Below are positions 132 to 56,124 of a DNA stretch of 64,000 nt, piece after piece. Each line of letters starts with the position of its first letter. Positions within the stretch are counted from its first letter, which is position 1. Both the position numbers and the translations under genes were made by a program. The notes under the pieces were generated by a model. The model was not told the DNA's origin, did no database searches, and was given only the letters and a program-made list of their open reading frames with translations. The stretch comes from Shigella phage MK-13, in sequence record MK509462; one strand, 5' to 3'.

Positions 132-286
132 GAGAGGTTCCTTAATATAGGGTTGATTGACCGGACTATTATATTTGGAAAGGTGTTATTGAATTAAAGG
201 CCAACAAAATAGGAGTGCGGTTTATTAATAGGCAAAAACTACTTTTCTACAACACTCAGAGACTGTATCTTACTGTGGTGCCCTTT

Positions 287-312
287 GAGTTGTGAGTGAT
301 AACGAACAACGA
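287..312. repeat. block A of a bipartite intergenic repeat (gagttgtgagtgataacgaacaacga); second copy at 41871..41896
   Basis: 26-nt near-identical match (1 mismatch) between two AT-rich intergenic regions about 41.6 kb apart. Confidence 0.6.
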
Positions 313-363
313 AAAGCAGCCTCCATGGCTGTGGAATGGGACTGCCTGTCAAGGCGGTGTTAC

Positions 364-385
364 GAGCGTAGCGAGTAGGTTAATA
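364..385. repeat. block B of the bipartite intergenic repeat (gagcgtagcgagtaggttaata); second copy at 41910..41932
   Basis: Second conserved block downstream of block A in both copies (gagcgWagcgaRtagg(a)ttaata); spacing A to B differs (51 nt vs 13 nt). Confidence 0.5.
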
Positions 386-430
386 CTAATCGAGTAATAT
401 AACGCGCGAGGAAGATTCAATCCCATCCCG

Positions 431-438
431 CTAAATAT
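431..438 (+). promoter_or_regulatory. late-promoter-like motif CTAAATAT upstream of the gp6-like gene
   Basis: CTAAATA box about 40 nt upstream of ATG 478; resembles T4 late promoter TATAAATA; same box recurs upstream of other late genes. Confidence 0.4.
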
Positions 439-477
439 CTTCAACACCATATTCAAGTTCAGGTGATGGAGATAAAC

Positions 478-2259
478 ATGGCCACACAAACAGTTCCTTC
501 ACTCGATGTCAGGGCTTTCGAGTATCTTATCAAGAAGCGCATGAAAGCTGATCCAACTTTCAAGGATTATGACTTTGAAGGTTCTGGTCTCAGTGCAATC
601 GTGCGTATCTTGGCCTCGGATGCCAACTCTATCGGGTTCATGCAGAACATGCTGAATGGCGAAAGCCATCTTCACTCTGCCCAACAGCGTTCTAATGTCG
701 GTCTGGCGGCGGGGTTCTTGTCTTACACCCCTCACAACCACCAGGCGGCGTTCCTGTACGCAAACGTCACAGTCACTCCATATGACGCCAGCACGGCTCC
801 AGACACGATTGTAATGGACCGCCGGGCGATGTTCATTGGAGCGAAGGATGGCAAATCCTACAACTTCACGGTTGACCAACCTGTGAGCGCCTCTCTTGTA
901 GACGGCTCTTACAAGTTCGAGAACATCAAACTCGTACAGGGCAACTGGCTGTACAAGTCCTATGACGTGGAAGGCAGCGCGATCTCTACCTATGTGATCC
1001 CATCTTCTTCCGTGGACATCAACCACATGGTGGTGCAGGTGCAGGAATCTGAGACCTCCGACGTGCGGTCTACCTTCTCACGATATGTCAGCCCGTTCGA
1101 TTTGAGCCAGTATGCACAACTCTACTTCGTTGAGCTGGGGTTGGACGGGATGTACACGTTTGAATTCGGCGACGGTTATATCTGCAAGCGAGTAGAAGAC
1201 GGCAACGTCGTGTATCTTCAGTATCTGGAGACCTCTGGTGCAGACGGCAATGACATCACTGCCTTGTCCTCTGCGTCTTCCATCGGGGGCTTCAACCTTG
1301 TAGATGTTGAGCTGGTGTCAGAACGTTCTTCCGGCGGTACAGACCCAGAGAGCATTGAAGACATCAAGCGCCTTGCTCCGCTGGCTTATCAGGCTGAGGG
1401 TGCGGCGGTAGCCGAAGTCGATTATGCTGTGTTGACTGAGCGCCTGTTCTCCAACGTCTCCCGCGCCAAAGCATATGGTGGAGACACGCTATCTCCGCCC
1501 GACTCTGGATACGTTTACATTGCTGTAGTACCTTCTGTTGGTGAGACGCTGTCGGACGCTGAGAAGGCAGATATCGTGGCGACTTTGGACAAGTACAATG
1601 TGGGTACGATTACACCCAAGATTGTCGACGCCGAACTGACTTATGTTGATGTCACCACCCGCGTGTTTTGGGATCCGACTTCCACGGCCTACACCGAAGA
1701 GCAGTTGAAGACAGTCGTAAAGAACGGTGTTGTCAACTGGGGCTTGGGGAACCTGGAAGGATTCGACGAACTGTTCGATAAAGAGCAGTTGCAGTCGGCC
1801 ATCACCGACATGGACAGATCGATAGCGTCAAACATCGCTTCCGTGAAGTACAAGCGCCACTTCAAGCCGGACTATGGGGTACTAGACAGCTTCACGTTCG
1901 ATTATGGGCGCTCGATTGCATCTGGTTCTGTGCGTATCAGTGGGTTTAAGCCGCTTCCGGCCGAGGTCGACTTCACTTACTACATGCGCGATGTCAGTGG
2001 TGTCCTGAATATGTACAAGGTGAGTACAGCAGACACGACCAAAGAATATCTGGTACAAGCTGTTGGAACGGTTGATTATGTGAATGGCGTTGTTGAACTC
2101 CAGCGCATCACAGTATCCAACTACAACACCGAGGGAGTGACTATCATCGTGTCCCCAGACGGTCTTGACCAGAACATTCAGGCCACACAAAACCAGGTGC
2201 TTCGCATCGGTGCTGTAACTGTGGAGCCGGAGGTGCGTTATGTCCAAAGATCTCAATAA
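478..2259 (+). CDS. baseplate wedge protein, T4 gp6 / P2 gpJ family
   Basis: ORF 463..2259, start refined to ATG 478 after AGGTGA RBS; N-terminal DYDFEGSGLSAIVRILAS matches the T4 gp6 DYDFEGSRLNVLCDLLAY signature; size typical (593 aa). Confidence 0.7.
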   Translation: MATQTVPSLDVRAFEYLIKKRMKADPTFKDYDFEGSGLSAIVRILASDANSIGFMQNMLNGESHLHSAQQRSNVGLAAGFLSYTPHNHQAAFLYANVTVTPYDASTAPDTIVMDRRAMFIGAKDGKSYNFTVDQPVSASLVDGSYKFENIKLVQGNWLYKSYDVEGSAISTYVIPSSSVDINHMVVQVQESETSDVRSTFSRYVSPFDLSQYAQLYFVELGLDGMYTFEFGDGYICKRVEDGNVVYLQYLETSGADGNDITALSSASSIGGFNLVDVELVSERSSGGTDPESIEDIKRLAPLAYQAEGAAVAEVDYAVLTERLFSNVSRAKAYGGDTLSPPDSGYVYIAVVPSVGETLSDAEKADIVATLDKYNVGTITPKIVDAELTYVDVTTRVFWDPTSTAYTEEQLKTVVKNGVVNWGLGNLEGFDELFDKEQLQSAITDMDRSIASNIASVKYKRHFKPDYGVLDSFTFDYGRSIASGSVRISGFKPLPAEVDFTYYMRDVSGVLNMYKVSTADTTKEYLVQAVGTVDYVNGVVELQRITVSNYNTEGVTIIVSPDGLDQNIQATQNQVLRIGAVTVEPEVRYVQRSQ

Positions 2260-3094
2260 CGGACACAATGGGGTGAAATATGAAACCCCATTGTTCTACC
2301 AGAATGAATTCCCAGTGTTCATCGAGTTCATGGACACGTTCTTCAACTGGCTGTATCGCCAGCAGGGATTCACCGAAGAGGAGATTTTGGCGTATCTGGC
2401 AGACACTGATGGTTGGGTGAACCCAAATACGGATCAGTCTCCTATTGAGCAGCTGATTGACATCAAGAAGCGCAAGACACCAGGGACCGAGGCCAAGGAC
2501 TTCTTGGAAGACAAGTTCCTGACGCGCACGTTTGAGAACATGATGGCGCTAGACTTCGAAAATTTGCTGGATGTAGACGGTCGGCCATTAATCTCAATGG
2601 AAGACAAGAACGAACGCATCGACGATTGGTATGCTGATTTTGGATTCCAGAGAACGGTTGATAAGACCTTCCTGGAGTTTGGGAAGTTTGTGCCAGTTGG
2701 TTCGGACAGTTTGGTGACTTCAGACGGAGACACGCTCTCTGTGTATGTCGAGGGAACCAAACGCCGAACGCTGGACCATGTCCGCTGGTTGAAGTTGCTT
2801 AAACACATTTATCGCATTCGCGGGACGAAGAAAGCGATTGAATTGTTCTTCTGGATTTACTTTGGTTGCCCAGTGAGTGTGTACTATCCCAAGGAAGAAA
2901 TTGGTGGTTTGGACGATAACTTTGAATGTGACGGCGCGACAGGAATGCGTGACGATTACTACTATGATGAATTCACGTATGTGATAAGAGTTCCTGGCGA
3001 CGTATCTGATTTTGAAGGTGTGTTTGAGCGCGTCTTCCGTCAGCATTTCCATCCTGCTGGGTTTACTGTATTCCTGGAAAGTTCAAGGAGTTAA
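2240..3094 (+). CDS. baseplate-associated structural protein (possible P2 gpI / wedge partner)
   Basis: 284-aa ORF overlapping the gp6-like stop, GGAGGTG RBS; assigned by synteny directly downstream of gp6-like; no motif recognised. Confidence 0.4.
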   Translation: MSKDLNNGHNGVKYETPLFYQNEFPVFIEFMDTFFNWLYRQQGFTEEEILAYLADTDGWVNPNTDQSPIEQLIDIKKRKTPGTEAKDFLEDKFLTRTFENMMALDFENLLDVDGRPLISMEDKNERIDDWYADFGFQRTVDKTFLEFGKFVPVGSDSLVTSDGDTLSVYVEGTKRRTLDHVRWLKLLKHIYRIRGTKKAIELFFWIYFGCPVSVYYPKEEIGGLDDNFECDGATGMRDDYYYDEFTYVIRVPGDVSDFEGVFERVFRQHFHPAGFTVFLESSRS

Positions 3095-3096
3095 AA

Positions 3097-4308
3097 ATGG
3101 CCGATTTTCTGAGTCAATACACAGGTCAGCAGATTGATGCAATCCTTTCTTCTGTTGACGATAAAGTAAGCAAGAACGATGTTATCAACGATTTCGCTGT
3201 TGATGATCCGTTGTTTCCTCCTTCAGCTCATCTGACGTATGAACTGAAGCGTTCTGTGGATGACATCTACGACACGTTGGATAATAAGGTGATTCGCACC
3301 GACGGTGGGGAACAAACTATCAACGGGCGGAAGACTTTTGCCGCAGAAATCCGAGCCAATGCTGGTGTCAGTATCCCTACGGGGAAGAAACTTACCATCG
3401 CAGATGAGCCAGTTGATTCCACTGATGGCGTCAATCTGTCTATGCTGCGCAAGCACGGCGTGAGTGAAGACACTGCCGGGGTTAACTCTGGTCTGAAAAT
3501 CGAGTTGTTATCTGGCGGCTACAACAAACTCACTTTCGACGGCACAAATCTGGCCACTTACTCTGGTACTGGTGTGCCAACTACCATGTTACTGGTGAGT
3601 GGAACCGACACTGTCAAGTACGACACATCTGCGTTTGTGACTTCTATCTTCAATGATACGCGTTTCAACGCTTATCTGAAGGTTGTTGATTACGACGCCG
3701 ATATGTTGGATATCCAGTCTCAGTTCAATACTGTGAACACCACTCTGGCAGCGAAGGTCAACACATCGACTTACAACTCCAAGATGTCTAGCCTGGACAC
3801 CAGTATACTGGATCTGACGAACAACAAAGTGAACGTCAGTACGTATAACACGAAGATGGCGGCGTTGGACAGTTCCATCAGCGGCATTCAGAGTGATATC
3901 GGCACGATCAATACCACGTTGTCTGGAAAGGTCAACACATCGACCTACAACGCCAAAATGACAAGCCTGGACGCCGACATTGCTGCCCGTGTGAAGATCG
4001 GGAAGACCAACCCAAGCGGCATCACTGTCTCTGCTTCGGGGAACTCTGCGTTGCCCGACTTCGATTTGGTGAACCTTTGCCAAGTGTTGATCAGTGCACA
4101 ATGGGGTACAGGCAACGTCGTGGATACGTACCGCGTGACGATCACCCGTGACGGGACTATCAAGTCTGAGCTGTTGATTCAGAAGTCCACTTCCGGTACG
4201 GTGACATTCGCGGGTTCTGTAGTGTCTTCAAAACTTCGTTTGACGATAACAAATGCGAACACGACGACTGCGTGCTCTATTGATTATAGTCTGGTCGCTT
4301 CTTTCTAA
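3097..4308 (+). CDS. tail fibre-like protein with heptad/serial repeats
   Basis: 403 aa; N-terminus typical of phage fibre proteins (TINGRKTFA, DSTDGVNLSMLRK); internal repeats VNTSTYNSKMSSLD / VSTYNTKMAALD / VNTSTYNAKMTSLD. Confidence 0.55.
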   Translation: MADFLSQYTGQQIDAILSSVDDKVSKNDVINDFAVDDPLFPPSAHLTYELKRSVDDIYDTLDNKVIRTDGGEQTINGRKTFAAEIRANAGVSIPTGKKLTIADEPVDSTDGVNLSMLRKHGVSEDTAGVNSGLKIELLSGGYNKLTFDGTNLATYSGTGVPTTMLLVSGTDTVKYDTSAFVTSIFNDTRFNAYLKVVDYDADMLDIQSQFNTVNTTLAAKVNTSTYNSKMSSLDTSILDLTNNKVNVSTYNTKMAALDSSISGIQSDIGTINTTLSGKVNTSTYNAKMTSLDADIAARVKIGKTNPSGITVSASGNSALPDFDLVNLCQVLISAQWGTGNVVDTYRVTITRDGTIKSELLIQKSTSGTVTFAGSVVSSKLRLTITNANTTTACSIDYSLVASF

Positions 4309-4316
4309 AGTGAAAG

Positions 4317-4327
4317 CTAAATACCCC
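4317..4327 (+). promoter_or_regulatory. late-promoter-like motif CTAAATACCCC with 5'-UTR hairpin (ataccccta / taggggtat, 4321..4355)
   Basis: CTAAATAcccc followed by inverted repeat whose 3' arm supplies a GGGG Shine-Dalgarno 7 nt before ATG 4361. Confidence 0.45.
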
Positions 4328-4360
4328 TAGATGAAACGAACACATTTAGGGGTATTTGAA

Positions 4361-7255
4361 ATGGCTAATAAACCAACACAGCCTGTTTTCCCTCTCGGTC
4401 TGGTGGCTGAAGAGCAGTCTACTTTGGCTGGTATCCTCAACACGGGTACGATTGAGCATGGACCAGATGCTGTCCTGACTTTACCCGAGGGTAATGCCAG
4501 TGCAGGTCTCCCGTCTTCTGTTCGCTACAATGCCGACTCCGACGAATTTGAGGGCTTCTACGAAAATGGTGGATGGTTGCCGCTGGGTGGCGGTGGTATC
4601 CGCTGGGAAGCCCTTCCGCATGCCTCTACGGCAACGCTCACTGAAGGGCGAGGCTATCTGGTAGACAACTCCACAGGCGTCTCTACGGTGGTGTTCCCTT
4701 CCCCTACGCGCATTGGCGATTCTGTTACAGTCTGTGACTTGTATGGAAAGTTCTCCCTGTATCCCCTGACCATTGACCCAAATGGTCGCCCAATGTATGG
4801 CTCTGTAGAGCCTATGACGCTCTCCACCGACAGCGTATCTGCGACCTTTACCTGGTCTGGTGACGCGCGTGGCTGGATTGTGACTGCTGGCGTCGGCCTT
4901 GGGCAGGGGCGCGTGTATAGCCGCACGATCTTCACTGAAACCGTTTCGGTAGACACCGCTCAAGTTACTCTGACAACGCAGCCGTCGATTGTTGATGTGT
5001 ATGTTGACGGCAAGCGCCTGCTGGAATCAAAGTATTCCCTCAATGGTTTCAATGTCGACTTCAGTCCATCAATCCCATCAGGTTCCGAGCTGCAGGTCAT
5101 CCAATACGTCCCGATCCAGTTAGGCAATGGCTCCGGTGGTTCCGGCGGCGGTACGGTTATCACTTGGATCTACAATAGTGGATCAGCTGCGGGTGGTGAA
5201 ACCGAGATCGAGTTGGACGTGGATGCCGAAGATGTTTCTGAGATCTTTATCGATGGATCCCGCCAGCAAAAAGGTCTGGGCTTCACTTATGACTCCGTTA
5301 CGAAGATCATCACGCTGGCCGACGAACTCGAAGCTGGTGATGAAGTTGTTGTCGTCATCAATGGCGACCCAACCCTGTACAATCAGATCGACCGTACACC
5401 AAACGAAGTGGCGCGTTCCGTGAACGTGCCGAATTCTCAGGTTATTTTGTCGTCCGATACCATCACCAAACTGGACGGAAAGACGGTTATCTATGATGTG
5501 GTGGCGCAAAAGATTTGGAGCTTACCTTCTGGTATCCCGACAGGTTCTTCTGTTGTATCTGTGAGTGGGAGCACTCTGACATATGCACCAGGGAATGTTG
5601 TTGTTTCTTTGCTCTTGCCGACTTCTGAAAGTTTGGTCGTTTTCCAAGAATTATTAGAGTCTAATGCGGGGGTTGGGTCTATTGGTGGCGTTGCTGTGGA
5701 ATTAGGAGACCGAAACTCGCTAAACTCGAACCAGACCGTGCTCGGGCGTATTGTGGCCAGCAAAACTCTTTCTGGTATTTACAACAAATATTCAGTTGTT
5801 CCCAACACAGGTAAAGTTGCTGACGGTGTGGTATTAATTGACCGCCTGGACGGTAATCAACTTGAAATTCAATTTGAAGACTATATTGATGTTCGCGCTT
5901 TCATGTTCGGCGCAATGACAGATCAGGAAACATTACAGGCAGCATTGGATTATGCGGATAGTGTTTCCGGACATTGCGTAATTGGCATCACACCCAAAAA
6001 CAAAAATGGAGACCCTTGGGTGTTCACGCATCTGCATATTGGTTCTAAAACTATTGTTAAGGGTGCAGGCGGCTGGTTGAAATTCGCAGATAATGTTTGT
6101 AATGATGCGACCAAAGCATATTATCTTGTCGAGAACTTTGATGCACAGGATACCCATTTAATAGATTTGTATATAGACGGAAACCAAGCAAGCAACACAT
6201 TGTATGCTGTAGCCGACATCTTAACGTTCGGTGGGAATCGATGCTCTATCACCAACTGTAAGCTCGTGAATGCCCCCGACTCAGGTCTGATGTTTGCGAC
6301 TACCAAAAACTGCTGGGTGAATGGTCTTTATGTAGAAAACACGCGCGACCTTGGGATCTACTTATCTGCAAGTGTGGCAGGCGGTACTCGTAACTGCGCA
6401 ATGTCCAACCTGGTGTTGCGCGACTGCGCTCAAGGGGCTATGGGTTTCAAACGCTACGTTGCCGACATTGTTGTGGATAATGTTGTAGCCACCAACTGTG
6501 GTAATGGAATCACCTTTGAAGGTTTTGAAGTTGTGACGCCGGGTATGAACCCATCCAATATCACTATGAGCAATATACGTCTGCGTGATATTGGATTTGG
6601 TTATCGGTCTGTTTCAGCGGCAGAGCGAGCTTTAAGTTTCGATTATGCTCGCGGCATCCGTATTAGCAACCTCAGCGTTCAGAACTGTTCTGGTGTCGGT
6701 ATCTTCTTCAGCACTAACACAAGTACTGGTATTTACATTAATGGCGCTAACTTAACTGGATATGCTGCTAACCCACAAATCGCGAGTGGTGTCCCAAACA
6801 ACGATGGTATTCAGTGTAATGGTGCTTCTGGTTTTGAACTGATTAATGTGAACTTGGAAGGGTTCGCAAGATACGCAGCTTGGTTCCTGAGCTGTAGTGG
6901 CGGCAGCGTGGTCGGTGGTCGTTGGACTAATACCCAGGCTAGTGGATATAATGCATACAACGGCGCACGTGTAAATGCAGCCTGTAGTTTCACTAAGTTT
7001 TCGCCTGAGTTTATTAGTGGGGCGAGCGGAACAGACCTAGAATGGTTTAATGGTGCGACTGGAATTACCAAAGACACGATACTGAACAATGCTACTGGCC
7101 CAGCAAAATATGGGTATGTTGTCGTCTCTGGTCCTACGCCTGTGGCTACAGTAACCCCCCGTTTTATTGGGCAGGAAGTCTGGAGTGCAGGTGCGAGTTC
7201 CTGGTGGAAATCACATGGCTTAACCTCCTCAGACTGGAAACAGATGTCAAATTGA
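4361..7255 (+). CDS. tailspike protein A (gp10-like N-terminal region plus right-handed beta-helix depolymerase-like domain)
   Basis: ORF 4331..7255; start moved to ATG 4361 downstream of promoter/hairpin. C-terminal half shows serial N-C-x-G / asparagine-ladder repeats (NCKLVNAPDSG, NCAMSNLVLRDCAQG, NCGNGITFEG, NCSGVGIFF) typical of pectate-lyase-fold tailspikes. Confidence 0.65.
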   Translation: MANKPTQPVFPLGLVAEEQSTLAGILNTGTIEHGPDAVLTLPEGNASAGLPSSVRYNADSDEFEGFYENGGWLPLGGGGIRWEALPHASTATLTEGRGYLVDNSTGVSTVVFPSPTRIGDSVTVCDLYGKFSLYPLTIDPNGRPMYGSVEPMTLSTDSVSATFTWSGDARGWIVTAGVGLGQGRVYSRTIFTETVSVDTAQVTLTTQPSIVDVYVDGKRLLESKYSLNGFNVDFSPSIPSGSELQVIQYVPIQLGNGSGGSGGGTVITWIYNSGSAAGGETEIELDVDAEDVSEIFIDGSRQQKGLGFTYDSVTKIITLADELEAGDEVVVVINGDPTLYNQIDRTPNEVARSVNVPNSQVILSSDTITKLDGKTVIYDVVAQKIWSLPSGIPTGSSVVSVSGSTLTYAPGNVVVSLLLPTSESLVVFQELLESNAGVGSIGGVAVELGDRNSLNSNQTVLGRIVASKTLSGIYNKYSVVPNTGKVADGVVLIDRLDGNQLEIQFEDYIDVRAFMFGAMTDQETLQAALDYADSVSGHCVIGITPKNKNGDPWVFTHLHIGSKTIVKGAGGWLKFADNVCNDATKAYYLVENFDAQDTHLIDLYIDGNQASNTLYAVADILTFGGNRCSITNCKLVNAPDSGLMFATTKNCWVNGLYVENTRDLGIYLSASVAGGTRNCAMSNLVLRDCAQGAMGFKRYVADIVVDNVVATNCGNGITFEGFEVVTPGMNPSNITMSNIRLRDIGFGYRSVSAAERALSFDYARGIRISNLSVQNCSGVGIFFSTNTSTGIYINGANLTGYAANPQIASGVPNNDGIQCNGASGFELINVNLEGFARYAAWFLSCSGGSVVGGRWTNTQASGYNAYNGARVNAACSFTKFSPEFISGASGTDLEWFNGATGITKDTILNNATGPAKYGYVVVSGPTPVATVTPRFIGQEVWSAGASSWWKSHGLTSSDWKQMSN

Positions 7256-7336: not shown

Positions 7337-9439
7337 ATGAATCCGCAATTCAATCAGCCGAAAGGTTCAACGGCCAAAGAAATCAACAAAAACCCGCGTG
7401 AATTATGGCGTCGGACTTTGTCGGAATTGGGTCTTAATTTGGTCGAAGGTAGTTTTGAAGACGGTGCTACTGTGGCGACTGCAACTGACGTCGTGTGGCA
7501 TATCAATGGCGCCCAGTGTTACACCTGGGGTGGGTCTTTACCCAAGACTGTAGACAAAAACTCAACACCGCAATCAACTGGTGGGATATCCGGAGAAGCT
7601 TGGAAGAAATACGATGAAACTTCTCAGGTTACGACACCAGGATACTATGGCGGAACTTGTTTCCCCACGGAAAATAATCTCTCCTTGGCCGTCGGGGATA
7701 TTATCCCGTCAGGAGTAATGTTCGTCAGAATTGATGGTAATCTGATGATGATGAGTTCTTCTCTGACGGAACCCGTGACTGTCACCAGTTTTGATCAGAC
7801 TGTGATCAATGGCTTGCATGAGTTGTATCCAGTATCATTCTTTAACGAAGTGATCACGGGATGGAAGATTGCCCAGAATGACGCACAGCTTACGCGTTTA
7901 CTCCCAAAGGCAGGGAATATTTACATTGGTTATTCTCCAGTGAAAGTTGAAGGAATCTTCATTATTCAGGGAGATATCCGACTCAAGCCATTGCTGCCAA
8001 AAGTAACCGTTGATTCACGTCAGTTCTGGTTGAGATCGCCGCGCGCCTGGAACGAAACAAACCAGGAATATGACTACACCGCGTACGATATTCGTATTGT
8101 CGGTAACTTCCTGTTTGACTTCTATAGGCAAGATGCTTCCTTTGACCCAGGCGTTGGACTAGCTATGCAGTCCGCTGGAACTCTGGAGCTTTCCGGGTGT
8201 GAGTTACAAGGTGCGTGGAGAAGCAACGTAACCATGGATTATGGGCGCTGGTCTATTGCAGACAACTTGTATTCACATGATTGTGGCAGGGGGCAGATTC
8301 AAAATCCAGATGGTAGCAACCGCAATGGTATGGCTATTATTGTTGGTAATGCGACAGAAGCACATATCCATCATATCCGCACCAGAACCACTTGGGCATC
8401 CTCTGTCTTTGTTGATTCTTACCGCCCTGGACGAACGCTTAACGTGATGATCCATGACGTTAGTATTAACGGTTCTGGTGGTAACGGCCTGCGCCTTCAA
8501 TCTGACGATCTTGTTACCGGTGTTGGCGGCGGGCAGGGTACTGCAATTACTCGTGTAAACATCAGCGGCGTAACAATTAAAAACTGTGAATCGCATGGCA
8601 TCCGCGCAAACTTCACCAACGGAAGCGTTACGGGCGTATACATTGAGTCATGTAACGCGGGTATTGCCATTGAGGGTTCTAGTGATGTCACGTATGACAA
8701 CATCACCATCAGGAATTGCTCACAGCCAATCCTCTGTCGATATTATCCGGTAGTCTGCACACGCCTGCGATTTAGTAATATCTTAATATCAGGCCACACA
8801 GATTGGGCTGTGTTCTTTTTGCGTAAGGATGGCTCCTCTCACACGGTAAATCTAGGTGATATTGAATTCGACGGGTTGACAATCCACTGCACACAACCTG
8901 GTTCTAAAGCTGTTATGATTAACTGCGGGTCGAACGCAACAGCTACTTCCGACATCACTATGAAGAACGTGCGTATTGTTGGCGCATTTCCTGATACAGA
9001 CGGAACAGCACTCTGTCAGATTCATAATGCACGACATATTGAAGTAGATAACTGGAACATCAGAGGTGTTAACGGGCTTCCTAGTTCTTATTTGTATGCG
9101 CAAGCATCTCAGAGCTTGAACGTGCATCGCCTGGTTGGCGTTCAACCGTTTGGTACTGTTGATCGTCCTATTGAGTGCGTTGGCGTGGCTGGTCACGTAA
9201 ACATTGTGAATTGTTCTGTTCCTGTAACCACGAACGGAATATTATATACTTCAACTCCTGCATCCCGTTACGAAGAAGGGAACCAGTTTTACAATAGCGC
9301 TCAACCACAACAATTCCCGTTCACCAACGCTGGGCAGTTGCGTGGTGGTGATGTGAACACGTTAACAACCACGCAACTGGCAAACATAGTGGCTACGCTG
9401 ATTAACGATATTAGCCTGGGTAAATTCGTAATCAGATAA
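7337..9439 (+). CDS. tailspike protein B (conserved MNPQFNQPKGS N-terminal head-binding module plus beta-helix)
   Basis: 700 aa; N-terminus MNPQFNQPKGS...YTWGGSLPK shared with tailspike D; beta-helix repeats (VNISGVTIKNCESHGIRAN, YIESCNAGIAIEG, ITIRNCSQP). Confidence 0.7.
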   Translation: MNPQFNQPKGSTAKEINKNPRELWRRTLSELGLNLVEGSFEDGATVATATDVVWHINGAQCYTWGGSLPKTVDKNSTPQSTGGISGEAWKKYDETSQVTTPGYYGGTCFPTENNLSLAVGDIIPSGVMFVRIDGNLMMMSSSLTEPVTVTSFDQTVINGLHELYPVSFFNEVITGWKIAQNDAQLTRLLPKAGNIYIGYSPVKVEGIFIIQGDIRLKPLLPKVTVDSRQFWLRSPRAWNETNQEYDYTAYDIRIVGNFLFDFYRQDASFDPGVGLAMQSAGTLELSGCELQGAWRSNVTMDYGRWSIADNLYSHDCGRGQIQNPDGSNRNGMAIIVGNATEAHIHHIRTRTTWASSVFVDSYRPGRTLNVMIHDVSINGSGGNGLRLQSDDLVTGVGGGQGTAITRVNISGVTIKNCESHGIRANFTNGSVTGVYIESCNAGIAIEGSSDVTYDNITIRNCSQPILCRYYPVVCTRLRFSNILISGHTDWAVFFLRKDGSSHTVNLGDIEFDGLTIHCTQPGSKAVMINCGSNATATSDITMKNVRIVGAFPDTDGTALCQIHNARHIEVDNWNIRGVNGLPSSYLYAQASQSLNVHRLVGVQPFGTVDRPIECVGVAGHVNIVNCSVPVTTNGILYTSTPASRYEEGNQFYNSAQPQQFPFTNAGQLRGGDVNTLTTTQLANIVATLINDISLGKFVIR

Positions 9440-9473
9440 ATAAGGGTCGCAGGATTAACCCCTTATCCATTCA

Positions 9474-14248: not shown

Positions 14249-14280
14249 AAAGCCCCTCAGATGAGGGGCTTTTTCTTTCT
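14249..14280 (+). terminator. rho-independent terminator (aaagcccctc-agat-gaggggcttt + TTTTCTTTCT)
   Basis: 10-bp stem, 4-nt loop, U-tract; lies inside the ORF-track N-terminal extension of the next ORF, which is therefore not coding. Confidence 0.7.
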
Positions 14281-39866: not shown

Positions 39867-41375
39867 ATGGCAGACATTCAGATTGTTAAGGTTAACGAAG
39901 TCCGCATGCGTTGCATCGCAGATCTTTCTATCAGGGAAGAGCTGAATGACTACTTCAAATTCGAAGACCCGAACTTCGTTCCCAACCCCTTCTCTAAATG
40001 GGACGGGGTTGTTCGCTTGTTCACCAAGTCATCCGGTCTGATTGATATCGGCCTACTGTTTGAGGTGTTCAAGTTCTGCAAGAACAACAAATACACCATT
40101 GAACTGGATCCGGCTCTGAAGTACATTCAGGACATCCCAGATCAAGAAATCCATGACTTCATCGACAGTCTCCATCCAAAGATCCGCACCGAAAATCACG
40201 AATACATCGATGCTGAGACCCGCGACTATCAGTACGACACCATCGCCAAGGCTATGCGTCAAACCAGATGCGTCTGTGAACTGGCTACGAGTGCTGGTAA
40301 GTCCTTTATTCTGTATGTCATGGCGCGGTACTACAGGCAGCGCAGAGAAGCTCTCGAAAGTCCTCTGAAGACGCTTATCGTGGTGCCGTCGATTCACCTG
40401 GTCACTCAGCTGTACGACAACTTTGAAGAGTACGCACACGGCAGCGATTGGAAGCCCGTTGCCAACACTCAGTTGATCTTTGAGGGCGCGACAAAGGAAA
40501 TCAGCAAACCAATCGTCATCAGTACATGGCAGGGCATTCAAGACCAGCCGAAAGAATGGTTCCACCAGTTCGGTGACATCGTGGTGGATGAAGTGCACAC
40601 CTCCAAGTCTGAGAAACTGTCCTACATCCTCAACAACTGCATCTACGCCGACCAGCGCCTGGGGGTTACAGGTACGCTGTCGAACACCAAAGTTGCCGGG
40701 CTTCAGGTGGTGGCTCACTTCGGGGCGTACCATAAGATCATCACGGCTCGCGACCTTATCAATCTCGGGTACGCCACTGACATCAAAGTGAAGATGATTC
40801 AGCTGAAGCACACTCCGGCGGATGCTGTTGGTCTGGACGGGGATTATACCAAGGAAATAGAATACCTTATTACACACCAGTCCCGCAACGAACTGATCGC
40901 CAAGATGGCACTGAATCTGAAAGGGAACGTGGCCATCATGTTCGAGCGTATTGACGCCCACATGATGGTTGTGTACGATATGCTGAGCGCAGTCAAGCCC
41001 AACGTGTTTGTCATCAACGGGGAAGTGAAGATCGAAGACCGCCGCCGCATACAGAAAGCGATGGAGGATGGAGAGGATATCACGTTGTTGGCTTCATACG
41101 GGACAATGCAACAGGGTGTGTCAATCAAGAAGCTACACCACCTTGTACTGGCGCACCCGAGCAAGTCATATATCCGCGTCATACAGACATTGGGTCGTCT
41201 GATGCGTCAGCACTCCTCCAAGGACGTCGCGTGGATATGGGACTTAGTGGATGATGTGTCGTACAACGCCAGCACGAACCACGCTATCAGGCACTCTCAT
41301 GAGCGATACAAGTTCTACCTGACAGAGCGCCACCCTGTGGAGTTCATGAAGGTGGCGCTGGGTAATCACGACTGA
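39867..41375 (+). CDS. uvsW: UvsW-like SF2 DNA helicase
   Basis: ORF 39774..41375; start ATG 39867 (GGGAG RBS). ATSAGKS (Walker A), VDEVH (DExH), WQGIQDQPKEWFHQFG, LHHLVLAHPSKSYIRVIQTLGR, WIWDLVDD parallel T4 UvsW PTSAGKS, WQTVVKQPKEWFSQFG, LHHVVLAHGVKSKIIVLQTIGR, VWDLIDD. Confidence 0.8.
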   Translation: MADIQIVKVNEVRMRCIADLSIREELNDYFKFEDPNFVPNPFSKWDGVVRLFTKSSGLIDIGLLFEVFKFCKNNKYTIELDPALKYIQDIPDQEIHDFIDSLHPKIRTENHEYIDAETRDYQYDTIAKAMRQTRCVCELATSAGKSFILYVMARYYRQRREALESPLKTLIVVPSIHLVTQLYDNFEEYAHGSDWKPVANTQLIFEGATKEISKPIVISTWQGIQDQPKEWFHQFGDIVVDEVHTSKSEKLSYILNNCIYADQRLGVTGTLSNTKVAGLQVVAHFGAYHKIITARDLINLGYATDIKVKMIQLKHTPADAVGLDGDYTKEIEYLITHQSRNELIAKMALNLKGNVAIMFERIDAHMMVVYDMLSAVKPNVFVINGEVKIEDRRRIQKAMEDGEDITLLASYGTMQQGVSIKKLHHLVLAHPSKSYIRVIQTLGRLMRQHSSKDVAWIWDLVDDVSYNASTNHAIRHSHERYKFYLTERHPVEFMKVALGNHD

Positions 41376-41743
41376 TCTTGATTCACATAGGCGGGGGTGG
41401 CCTCGCCTTCATCAGATACTGCGCCGAACAATTTGTCCAGAGAAACCAGACATTGTGCGTTCAGGTGTTCACTGATAGTGTCCTTCAGCATTTGTTCGCT
41501 GCCCAATTTGAATGGCAGAACCTTCGCTTCGACGCCGTTTTCAAACGTCACCACACCGACATACAGACCAACTTTCAGGCCTGCCATCAAACCCAGAGGG
41601 ACAAATCGCGGCTCCGATGGTAAGTTCTTGTCTGACGCCAGCTGCGCCAGATAAACTGGGGTGCCTGTGACAAATTGCCCTGCGGTGAGGATGGCGTCTG
41701 GCTTACTGCATCCGACCGCATATAATCCTACGAACTGTTTCAT
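41366..41743 (-). CDS. hypothetical protein, minus strand, convergent with uvsW
   Basis: 125-aa ORF; ATG at 41743 with GAGAG RBS 6 nt upstream on minus strand; overlaps uvsW stop by 10 nt. Confidence 0.45.
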   Translation of the reverse strand: MKQFVGLYAVGCSKPDAILTAGQFVTGTPVYLAQLASDKNLPSEPRFVPLGLMAGLKVGLYVGVVTFENGVEAKVLPFKLGSEQMLKDTISEHLNAQCLVSLDKLFGAVSDEGEATPAYVNQDQS

Positions 41744-41870
41744 ATATTACTCTCGTGTGTTGGTTAACATGACATACATATTATTTCGCGTGCATGTTTA
41801 GACCAAATAAATTAATTTTGCTGTTGAATAAAAATTGCTTTCCTGTTGAACAAATGGCGCGGTATTATAC

Positions 41871-41896
41871 GAGTTGTGAGTGTTAACGAACAACGA
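41871..41896. repeat. block A' of bipartite intergenic repeat (gagttgtgagtgttaacgaacaacga)
   Basis: Matches 287..312 with 1 mismatch. Confidence 0.6.
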
Positions 41897-41909
41897 GTAT
41901 TTGTTTTAT

Positions 41910-41932
41910 GAGCGAAGCGAATAGGATTAATA
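41910..41932. repeat. block B' of bipartite intergenic repeat (gagcgaagcgaataggattaata)
   Basis: Matches 364..385 with 2 substitutions and 1 inserted base. Confidence 0.5.
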
Positions 41933-42083
41933 AAGGTTATTATCTTTAATAAAGTCCATAAATGCCGAAGGCATTTATTAATAACGCGTAGCGCAATTTG
42001 CCACTTGTTCTATAAGCACAACACAGCGATACTAGATTGCGTCAAACATGACTTGAACCCCACTATATTTTGAGGATACATAA

Positions 42084-42752
42084 ATGCAAGAGATCACTCT
42101 CTCCGAACGTACACTCCAGTTGCTGGCCAACTTTGAGACCATCAACCCATCTATCGTTCTGACACCGGGTAAGATGCTGCGCAGCATTAACGATTCGTCT
42201 ACTGTTATCGCCGTGGCACAGATCGAAGAAGACTTCCCGTTTGAGTTCCCTATCCTGGACCTGACCAAACTTCTGGCCATCCAGCGCCTGCCTTCCTTCA
42301 AAGGCGGTAAAGCCGAATTCCATCAGGACTACATCCTGTTGAAAGGCGAAAGCTCTCAGCTGCAATTCTGGCGTTCTGCTAAAGAACTCACTGTTGTTCC
42401 GGCTGACACCATTGAACTGCCGTCTGTCGACTTTGAAGCGATCATCACTCCAGAGAAGATGAAAGAACTGACCCGCGCCTGTTCTACCCTCGGTCACAAG
42501 ACTGTGCGCCTGGTTGCTCAGGGTGGCAAAACTCGTCTGGTTGCAACCACCACTACCCTGGATAACTCCAACAACTACACCGTTGAGCTGGGTGAAACCG
42601 CGCTGCCGGACTTCGTCATGCCACTGGACGTTGCCAACCTGAAGATGATCGAAGGCAACTACACTCTGCGTGCCTGCGCTGAGCTGCAGATGGTGAACTT
42701 CCAATCATCCGACGCGACGATCAATTACTTCGTCGGCGCACAGATTGAGTAA
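42084..42752 (+). CDS. sliding clamp, T4 gp45-like
   Basis: N-terminus LQLLANFETINPSIVLTPGKM resembles gp45 ALLKNFATINSGIMLKSGQF; 222 aa; GAGGA RBS. Confidence 0.8.
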   Translation: MQEITLSERTLQLLANFETINPSIVLTPGKMLRSINDSSTVIAVAQIEEDFPFEFPILDLTKLLAIQRLPSFKGGKAEFHQDYILLKGESSQLQFWRSAKELTVVPADTIELPSVDFEAIITPEKMKELTRACSTLGHKTVRLVAQGGKTRLVATTTTLDNSNNYTVELGETALPDFVMPLDVANLKMIEGNYTLRACAELQMVNFQSSDATINYFVGAQIE

Positions 42753-42765
42753 TCAATCTCCAGCC

Positions 42766-42774
42766 TGATGCTAT
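42766..42774 (+). promoter_or_regulatory. extended -10 sigma70-like element TGcTATAAT
   Basis: TGnTATAAT at 42766..42774 in the gp45-gp44 junction; no canonical -35. Confidence 0.3.
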
Positions 42775-42833
42775 AATGTGTGGGCGGGGGCGTTCCCCGC
42801 CTATTTGAAATGATTCTTCTACACGAGGCTGAA

Positions 42834-45630: not shown

Positions 45631-45699
45631 GATATACAGTTATTCACTAAACAACAGAGGCTATAATGGCCTCTGTTTTTCGTATTCTAAGAGGATACC

Positions 45700-49485: not shown

Positions 49486-49513
49486 AACCCCGCCATGTGC
49501 GGGGTTTCTTTTG
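49486..49513 (+). terminator. rho-independent terminator (aaccccgc-catgt-gcggggtt + TCTTTTGG)
   Basis: 8-bp GC stem plus T-run after 49099..49470. Confidence 0.6.
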
Positions 49514-56100: not shown

Positions 56101-56124
56101 GGGCGGGGCAACCCGCCTTTCTTT
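56101..56124 (+). terminator. hairpin gggcggg-gcaa-cccgcc + TTTCTTTG
   Basis: After VWA gene stop. Confidence 0.5.

Follow-up and report, generated by a model that had tools for sequence, protein, structure and literature searches.

The nut sites of phage lambda, each composed of a boxA and a boxB, and the put RNAs of phage HK022 are promoter-proximal RNA elements for processive antitermination. The lambda boxB is a 5-bp stem with a GNRA-like pentaloop that is bound by the arginine-rich N peptide; in HK022, the nascent put RNA, with its two stem-loops, needs no protein factors to bind RNA polymerase and suppress terminators. On the T4 map, oriF lies within uvsY and oriE lies near gene 5. The T4 origins oriF and oriG, of ~100 bp, consist of a promoter followed by an AT-rich unwinding element; the T4 genome contains several origins, of which oriE, oriF, and oriG lie at points of transcriptional divergence, and repEA is located near oriE (PMC3016281). 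Mini-hairpin DNA motifs of the type GCGNAGC, GCGNNAGC, or CCGAAGG occur in the complementary-strand origins of G4, St-1, and alpha3, in RSF1010 ssiA, and in the N4 virion-RNAP promoters, and work as single-stranded DNA in ssDNA phages, in plasmids, or with a virion polymerase (PMC13037366). The PeSLs of T4-like phages are present in many places per genome, in hyperplastic regions beside variable ORFs, and carry a simple terminator-like stem-loop (PMC2839356, PMC4122927).

Here, we describe a cassette found in a 64,000-nt window of Shigella phage MK-13 (MK509462), the window being the whole stretch of DNA that was analyzed. It is 94–99.5% identical to Shigella phage Ag3 and Salmonella phages SKML-39 and P46FS4, and by its sequence it belongs to the genus Agtrevirus (Ag3/SKML-39/P46FS4-like) in the family Ackermannviridae. 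Biocontrol and therapy make wide use of phages of this family (ViI, CBA120, Ag3, and LIMEstone relatives). Their early promoters, including those at the divergence points of ViI-like phages, their gene timing in the absence of MotA and AsiA, and their origins were described as unidentified by Kutter et al. (PMC3184105). The cassette is a phage element of structured nucleic acid in a promoter-proximal position. It is a genuine feature that, judging by the RNA libraries and papers available, has not been described before: we found no published description, including in papers on CBA120 and LIMEstone, which give the early promoters and timing mechanism of these phages as unknown, and a scan of the whole window with the covariance models of Rfam 15 gave no hit at the gathering threshold (the best sub-threshold hit, RAGATH-36, reached 17.8 bits against a threshold of 70, E = 0.14).

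The cassette resembles nut and put in being bipartite, in lying just downstream of an early-type promoter, in being co-oriented with long gene blocks, and in occurring as at least two similar copies per genome with variable spacing. With put it also shares a two-stem-loop layout, seen here from sequence and fold prediction alone. In all copies and orthologues compared, however, boxA (CGCUCUUA / UGCUCUUUA) is not conserved beside the hairpins. The exact boxA CGCUCUUA is present only in copy 3 of Agtrevirus and Limestonevirus (shuffle P ~0.005), the orthologues of copy 3 have two mismatches, and the other copies and orthologues have at least 1–3 mismatches, no better than shuffled sequences. Unlike lambda boxB, the hairpins have a 2-bp tip stem and a variable loop of 3–4 nt on a tandem-G·A stem. 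Unlike lambda nut, the cassette belongs to a virulent, T4-related phage, and no N-like protein was identified among the neighboring small proteins, which had no Pfam match (ORF39, ORF209, and ORF102 likewise gave no informative family). Since boxA is not conserved and the hairpins are not boxB-like, the cassette is at most an analogue of nut and not a member of that class. A further likeness is to PeSL cassettes (PMC2839356, PMC4122927), which also combine a repeated T4-type early promoter with a stem-loop in intergenic DNA; by analogy, this offers a possible way for the cassette to have been copied to new loci. Unlike the PeSLs, to which we do not assign it, the cassette is present in three copies at conserved core loci and has a complex, covarying fold downstream of its promoter.

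Three copies at conserved loci

A first-pass annotation of the window had claimed that two long intergenic regions share a block A and a block B. We recovered both blocks in both regions (Table 1), in the same order and on the same strand, separated by 51 nt in copy 1 and 13 nt in copy 2. The two copies of block A (GAGTTGTGAGTGWTAACGAACAACGA) are identical at 25 of 26 positions and are the only matches in the window when up to three mismatches are allowed, against an expectation of zero in shuffled sequences. Block B (GAGCGWAGCGARTAGG, matching at 364–379 and 41910–41925) is not significant alone, with 0.85 matches expected at up to three mismatches; we accepted it as real because it is conserved at the orthologous sites in ~275 phage records. 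The regions also have in common a promoter-like element and a block C, and outside the shared elements they cannot be aligned. A check for duplicated flanking coding sequence found none in common, so the pair does not reflect a simple recent duplication. Copies 1 and 2 lie at strand switches and head gene blocks of ~41 and ~44 kb, respectively, and these long blocks contain strong internal terminators. Intrinsic-terminator-like hairpins with U-tracts were seen between genes on the plus strand at 14249–14272, 45653–45677, 49486–49506, and 56101–56118. The annotation had also proposed a search for further copies, which turned up a third one beyond the limits of the window, situated upstream of gp5, the baseplate hub gene.

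Table 1. Features of the three cassette copies and their surroundings (window positions unless P46FS4 is named)
Feature	Position	Strand	Description
First intergenic region	141-477		between a minus-strand gene (no assigned function) and the gp6 baseplate wedge gene
Copy 1 P1	234..271	+	A-tract 234-238, -35-like TTTTCT 243-248, 17-nt spacer, -10 TATCTT 266-271
Copy 1 hairpin A	283..316	+	CUUU-GA-GUUGU-GA-GU-GAUA-AC-GA-ACAAC-GA-AAAG; predicted by RNA and DNA folding
Copy 1 block A	287-312		
Copy 1 hairpin P3	316-321 with 327-332	+	loop UCCAU; middle module, part 1
Copy 1 pseudoknot	323-326 with 336-339	+	loop CCAU with AUGG; middle module, part 1
Copy 1 hairpin P4	341-347 with 352-358	+	middle module, part 2; conserved U343·G356 wobble
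Copy 1 hairpin B	360..378	+	UUAC-GA-GC-GUA-GC-GA-GUAG
Copy 1 block B	364-385		
Copy 1 AT-rich linker	379-400	+	followed by block C
Copy 1 block C	401-410		AACGCGCGAG
T4-late-type promoter-like sequence	431..438	+	CTAAATAT; before gp6 (ATG at 478); context, outside the cassette
Second intergenic region	41744-42083		between a minus-strand gene (no assigned function), just after uvsW, and the gp45 sliding clamp gene
Promoter-like sequence before divergent gene	~41778-41806	minus	TTGGTC-N17-TAATAT; conserved in Kutter- and Taipeivirus
Copy 2 P1	41830..41868	+	A-tract 41830-41834, -35-like TTCCTG 41840-41845, -10 TATTAT 41863-41868
Copy 2 hairpin A	41867..41900	+	AUAC-GA-GUUGU-GA-GU-GUUA-AC-GA-ACAAC-GA-GUAU; overlaps last two bases of -10 hexamer
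Copy 2 block A	41871-41896		
Copy 2 hairpin B	41906..41924	+	UUAU-GA-GC-GAA-GC-GA-AUAG
Copy 2 block B	41910-41932		
Copy 2 AT-rich stretch	41925-41957	+	
Copy 2 hairpin T	41958-41978	+	9 pairs, contains CCGAAGG, no plus-strand U-tract
Copy 2 block C variant	41983-41994	+	AACGCGTAGCGC; contains GCGTAGC
Sigma70-like promoter upstream of gp45	42005-42033		TTGTTC-N17-GATACT; conserved in Kutter- and Taipeivirus
Copy 3 locus	P46FS4 83705-84065	minus	upstream of the gp5 baseplate hub gene

The conservation in related phages proved to be strong. With a 79-nt query that spanned both blocks of the second region, 275 phage records were matched, essentially all from Ackermannviridae, at two to three places per genome, and a query with the first region gave the same picture. 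Copies were read directly in six genera (Agtre-, Limestone-, Kutter-, Taipei-, Milton-, and Nezavisimistyvirus), in which the gp6, gp45, and gp5 loci are at orthologous positions. Between genera, copy 1 is 94%/86% conserved and its promoter-like element 83–89% conserved, compared to 75–76% for the neighboring gp6 coding sequence; in phage Kevin, hairpin B and the linker are identical across all three copies. The element was absent upstream of gp45 in Vibrio phage K452 and from the other operon heads in the genome, and the E. coli genomes contained no homologue. Scans of IMG/VR with block B patterns returned mostly chance matches and added one new variant (L083). No tRNA or tmRNA was found at the element, nor any plausible small ORF, and indels between homologues break any reading frame. 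We also noted mosaicism within the window: the gp6 end (positions 1–1500 compared) is ~95–96% identical to its best relatives, and the gp45 region (41000–42800 compared), where the divergent minus-strand gene occupies 41366–41743, is 99.2–99.5% identical to Ag3, P46FS4, and SKML-39.

Folding of the hairpins and the middle module

Blocks A and B are the cores of two hairpins of one build, in which a stem is followed by tandem G·A/A·G mismatches, a 2-bp stem, and a loop of 3–4 nt. For hairpin A, canonical pairs were counted on a hand parse, since stems of unequal length allow no single bracket string for the MAFFT alignment. Across 16 distinct versions from the six genera, 191 of 195 pairs are canonical, although the stems comprise nine outer and nine middle sequence types; the tandem GA beside the tip is invariant. 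The pairs include 10 G·U and no A·C, and the opposite strand would pair at 181 of 195. The presence of G·U together with the absence of A·C indicates that the plus strand is the folding strand. In hairpin B, the closing pair is C-G in seven sequences and U-A in four (n = 11), and this compensating pair (UAC/GUA vs. UAU/AUA) explains the degenerate R and Y positions of block B; the degenerate W positions fall in a loop. In Kuttervirus 'barely', a longer hairpin takes the place of the hairpin B tip, and in copy 1 of P46FS4 the tip carries an 11-nt insertion that is absent from the window. The thermodynamic signal is modest (z = −2.3 and −1.5).

The tip loops, flanked by tandem G·A, vary in sequence (GAA, GUA, GAUA, GUUA, UUU, UUCA, and AAC). 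Several tips (GCGTAGC, GCGAAGC, GCGGAGC, GCGTTAGC, and GCGTCAGC), as well as the CCGAAGG of hairpin T, fit the DNA mini-hairpin rule exactly. Within the window, the rule holds for the hairpin B tips (GCGTAGC at 367–373 and GCGAAGC at 41913–41919) and for the GCGTAGC at 41986–41992 in copy 2 block C, and in other genera it holds for many hairpin A tips; the window's own hairpin A tips (GTGATAAC and GTGTTAAC) do not fit it. The cassette differs from the DNA mini-hairpins in that other tips (GTGATAAC, GCTTTGC, and GCAACGC) depart from the rule, in the conserved G·U pairs of its stems, and in having a promoter upstream.

The 51 nt between the blocks of copy 1 form an inserted module that is common to copy 3 and absent from copy 2. 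Its hairpin P4 is 100% paired across 11 sequences, with two pairs changed on both sides; P3 likewise has two pairs with changes on both sides, and the pseudoknot is 100% paired, with A-U in eight sequences and C-G in three (n = 11). As an alternative to the pseudoknot, a 5' CCC(UU) may pair with the same GG of the AUGG. In the 11-sequence alignment, 94.9% of the cells of the middle module and hairpin B are paired, compared to 26–46% when partners are slid by 1–3 columns, both sides have changed in six pairs, the pseudoknot pair included, and the covariation score was reached by none of 500 shuffles; the aligned sequences being few and related, these numbers show consistency and not formal significance. 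RNAalifold independently recovered P3, P4, and hairpin B. In Milton- and Nezavisimistyvirus, all three copies consist of hairpins A and B without the middle module, which identifies the two-hairpin form as the common core. Among the options offered by the first-pass annotation, that of a small RNA whose middle varies and whose ends are the two blocks therefore comes closest, with the amendments that the blocks are hairpins specific to one strand and show compensatory changes, and that the middle is an optional inserted module.

Several other candidate identities were dropped. A generic scan for N-GA-NN-loop-NN-GA-N' units was uninformative (163 found vs. 131 expected). The hammerhead-like UGAUGA-[GCGAAGC]-GAA was rejected because CUGAUGA and GAAA are not conserved between copies and the UAC/GUA vs. 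UAU/AUA pairing explains the variation. By inspection, the tRNA T-arm-like GGATCGAAT has no complementary strand, and the DnaA-box-like TTATCCGAG is wrong at positions 7–9. A likeness of P4 to the type I-F CRISPR repeat hairpin was abandoned as its loop and stem vary freely. In the window, the P3 loop could pair over 6 nt with the ribosome-binding site of gp6, in the manner of an anti-Shine-Dalgarno sequence, but this pairing showed no covariation in T765.

The promoter-like element and downstream surroundings

The annotation had argued that the conservation exceeds what −35/−10 boxes would account for, which is right; yet a promoter-like element, P1, is situated directly upstream of block A in every copy. 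Its pattern, A5-N3/4-TTTTCW (TTGGAC in some copies)-N17-TAnnnT, precedes all copies in the six genera, and in the whole P46FS4 genome the motif is restricted to the three loci. The T4-type early promoter consensus is TTTACW-N17-TAYWAT (PMC4122927), and, judged by sequence, P1 resembles a σ70/T4-type early promoter. In copy 2, the −35-like element is TTGGAC in Miltonvirus, and the −10 is kept as TAnTAT/TAnnnT in six genera, with variation at the inner positions. Transcription from P1 would be expected to start at ~277–279 in copy 1 and at ~41874–41877 in copy 2. The latter position lies inside the 5' strand of hairpin A in all six genera, such that a copy 2 RNA started ~7 nt after the −10 cannot contain that whole hairpin; in copies 1 and 3, hairpin A is 12 nt further downstream.

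After hairpin B, all copies in all genera have the same order of an AT-rich stretch, a block (A)ACGCGCG(CG)AG, and the downstream gene's own promoter-like sequence. The AT-rich stretch of copy 2 is 76–87% AT over 30–60 bp and ranks third to sixth in the genome; those of copies 1 and 3 are 62–73% AT, behind ~600–5800 other genome positions. The two most AT-rich 30–60-bp stretches of P46FS4 (86–93% AT, at 73661 and 144542; L001 and L002) are in short intergenic gaps unrelated to the element. In many copies, a covarying hairpin T lies between the AT-rich stretch and the (A)ACGCGCG(CG)AG block; copies 2 and 3 and the two further phiEa2809 copies have it after hairpin B. Its stem reads GGAAGC/GCUUCC, GGAUGC/GCAUCC, or GGCGGC/GCCGCC (L056 400–600, L057, L058, and L066/L067, which are copy 3 and the phiEa2809 copies), and in copy 3 and the phiEa2809 copies it is always directly followed by TATARTAT; the two together could form a late-promoter variant or a terminator combined with a promoter. 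On the plus strand of the two intergenic regions, no U-tract-bearing intrinsic terminator was called.

The late promoter of ViI-like phages was also listed as unidentified by Kutter et al. (PMC3184105). We found (C/T)(A/T)TAAATA conserved before gp6, where it is followed by CTTCAAC, and before gp5 in all genera examined, which makes this sequence a candidate late-promoter consensus for Ackermannviridae.

Possible roles of the cassette

We tentatively favor, at somewhat below even confidence, the interpretation that the cassette is a structured noncoding leader RNA that serves as a binding platform and acts in cis. P1, a σ70/T4-early-type promoter with its upstream A-tract, would fire on the plus strand towards gp6, gp45, or gp5, and the first 55–110 nt of the transcript would fold into the two hairpins, each with a stem, tandem sheared G·A pairs, a 2-bp stem, and a small loop, with the pseudoknotted module inserted between them in two of the three copies. 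This early noncoding leader RNA might then bind, through both G·A hairpins, a common factor, which could be RNA polymerase itself or a phage or host protein. The bound RNA would act on the complex that made it and decide whether early transcription passes hairpin T and the AT-rich stretch into gp6, gp45, and gp5. Such working would resemble that of the lambda nut or HK022 put RNAs with another architecture, and the effect may include stabilization of the message at its 5' end. The promoter and the fold are seen at the sequence level; that the transcript is a bound leader and that it acts in cis we infer. Some observations count against the leader interpretation. The downstream genes each have their own promoter after the cassette, which could therefore be a separate gene; the other operon heads lack the element; boxA is not conserved and the loops are unlike boxB; the start expected in copy 2 falls inside hairpin A; the thermodynamic signal is modest; and the loops at the tips are closer to the DNA mini-hairpin rule GCGNAGC/GCGNNAGC than to the RNA GNRA rule (PMC13037366).

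This last observation also bears on another account, possible but on the whole doubtful, in which the cassettes are T4-type R-loop replication origins, the first-pass annotation having named an origin-like element among its options. Here, the P1 primer transcript would stay hybridized to the template in the AT-rich stretch, and the displaced nontemplate (plus) strand would fold into very stable G·A/GNA mini-hairpins that hold the bubble open or mark a loading site for helicase or primase. As with oriF and oriG (PMC3016281), a promoter, here recognized by sequence, is followed by an AT-rich stretch within ~100–170 bp, at several places per genome and in strand-switch regions (copies 1 and 2). 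Copy 2 adjoins uvsW/uvsY and gp45, copy 3 adjoins gp5, and the phage family has the same replisome as T4 and encodes UvsW and RNase HI. Four mini-hairpin motifs lie within 130 nt in copy 2, and motifs of this type have been reported at single-strand initiation sites of phages and plasmids (PMC13037366); the overlap of the copy 2 hairpin A with the −10 would likewise suit a DNA-strand structure better than an RNA. However, the T4 origins share no sequence motif or structure, and R-loop formation there is sequence independent (PMC3016281), whereas sequence and fold are tightly conserved here, in a segment between the promoter and an AT-rich part that is short in two of three copies and outstanding in copy 2 only. 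Conserved G·T wobbles in the stems and a covarying pseudoknot would also be unusual for DNA, and RNA hairpins would compete with hybrid formation. We give no greater credence to the fuller proposal that the three cassettes are the replication origins of MotA-less T4 relatives, in which a structured primer RNA made from a dedicated early promoter and ultra-stable G·A/GNA mini-hairpins of the nontemplate DNA would jointly fix the site of the R-loop and of helicase, primase, and clamp loading. Because the clamp also activates late promoters, origin cassettes could, if this were true, turn on the gp6 and gp5 late promoters beside them.

It is rather unlikely that the copies encode three paralogous trans-acting sRNAs, each with its own promoter and ending before that of the downstream gene, that act as a protein decoy or sponge via the two G·A hairpins or by base-pairing via the AU-rich single-stranded stretch after hairpin B. 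The cassette is discrete, with the separate downstream-gene promoter lying after block C and the covarying hairpin T after hairpin B in the copies named above, and near-complete conservation of the ~100-nt copy 1 suggests a ribonucleoprotein; paralogues within a genome have near-identical cores, such as hairpin B and the linker in phage Kevin. Nevertheless, the plus strand offers no intrinsic terminator with a U-tract, hairpin T leads into TATARTAT and not into a run of U's, the element has no homologue in E. coli, and no target or partner was identified. Far less probable is a role as double-stranded DNA sites, whether imperfect palindromes bound by a phage or host regulator (a binding site for a phage regulator had been suggested in the first-pass annotation) or components of an atypical promoter. 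Both blocks are indeed imperfect inverted repeats beside a promoter-like element, but their half-sites are asymmetric, with GA facing GA and not TC, the stems retain their pairing with wholly different sequences from genus to genus, and the blocks lie downstream of the −10 and not at −35/−10. The occurrence of 10 G·U and no A·C pairs indicates, moreover, that only one strand pairs. We give almost no weight to chance similarity or a functionless recent duplication, for which the statistical weakness of block B alone within the window could be cited: the expectation for block A is zero, the flanks are unrelated, and the three loci are orthologous in six genera with compensatory changes.

Whether read as an antitermination-like leader, as we tentatively prefer, as a structure-defined R-loop origin, or as a protein-binding sRNA, the cassette makes one question of Ackermannviridae biology experimentally accessible. 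It supplies three concrete, conserved candidates for early-type promoters and a covariation-supported folded element that would need a binding partner, and the alignment directly allows the design of disrupting and compensatory mutants. It is also a candidate for a new RNA family built from tandem-G·A mini-hairpins, a module that recurs in unrelated bacterial repeats.

The core TCCGAGCGNAGCGAGTGAT had 84 metagenome matches (L190–L269), none from Ackermannviridae, of which ~35 were inside one conserved soil-bacterial coding region. Others were at the tips of CCCCGCGGAA...TTTCGTGGGG hairpins beside gene starts, in inverted-repeat pairs (GTCATCCGAGCG...GATC / GATCCCTCGC...GATGAC), in REP-like GTAGGCCGGAA units, or in a terminator-bearing sRNA-like unit (L207, L217, L223, L232, and L248); none of these contexts matched an Rfam family. 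Like the cassette, the REP-like repeats and other soil-metagenome hairpins have the core UCC-GA-GC-GNA-GC-GA-G(U)GAU, there capping a longer stem; unlike it, they lie in unrelated flanks and contexts and lack both a promoter and a second hairpin. The GA-GC-GNA-GC-GA core with short complementary flanks is thus a generic, very stable module, and because it recurs in unrelated contexts, likeness to block B alone does not indicate homology. Long tandem arrays of GAGCGTAGCGAGTAGG-like units (GAGCGTAGCGAGTAGGGAGTAGCGAGTACGACCGCAGC...) were present in the 191-kb IMG/VR contig 638275427_000001 (L017, L020, L027, L043, and L044). In unrelated viral contigs (L019 at 8250–8400; L046 at 8490–8640 and 9310–9460), paralogous genes that begin with ATGGC(T/C)GATG have upstream of them GTGAGTG, a TTGTTGTG/CAACAACAA hairpin, and GAGCGTAGCGAATAGG; this likeness to the cassette is due either to chance or to a distant analogue.
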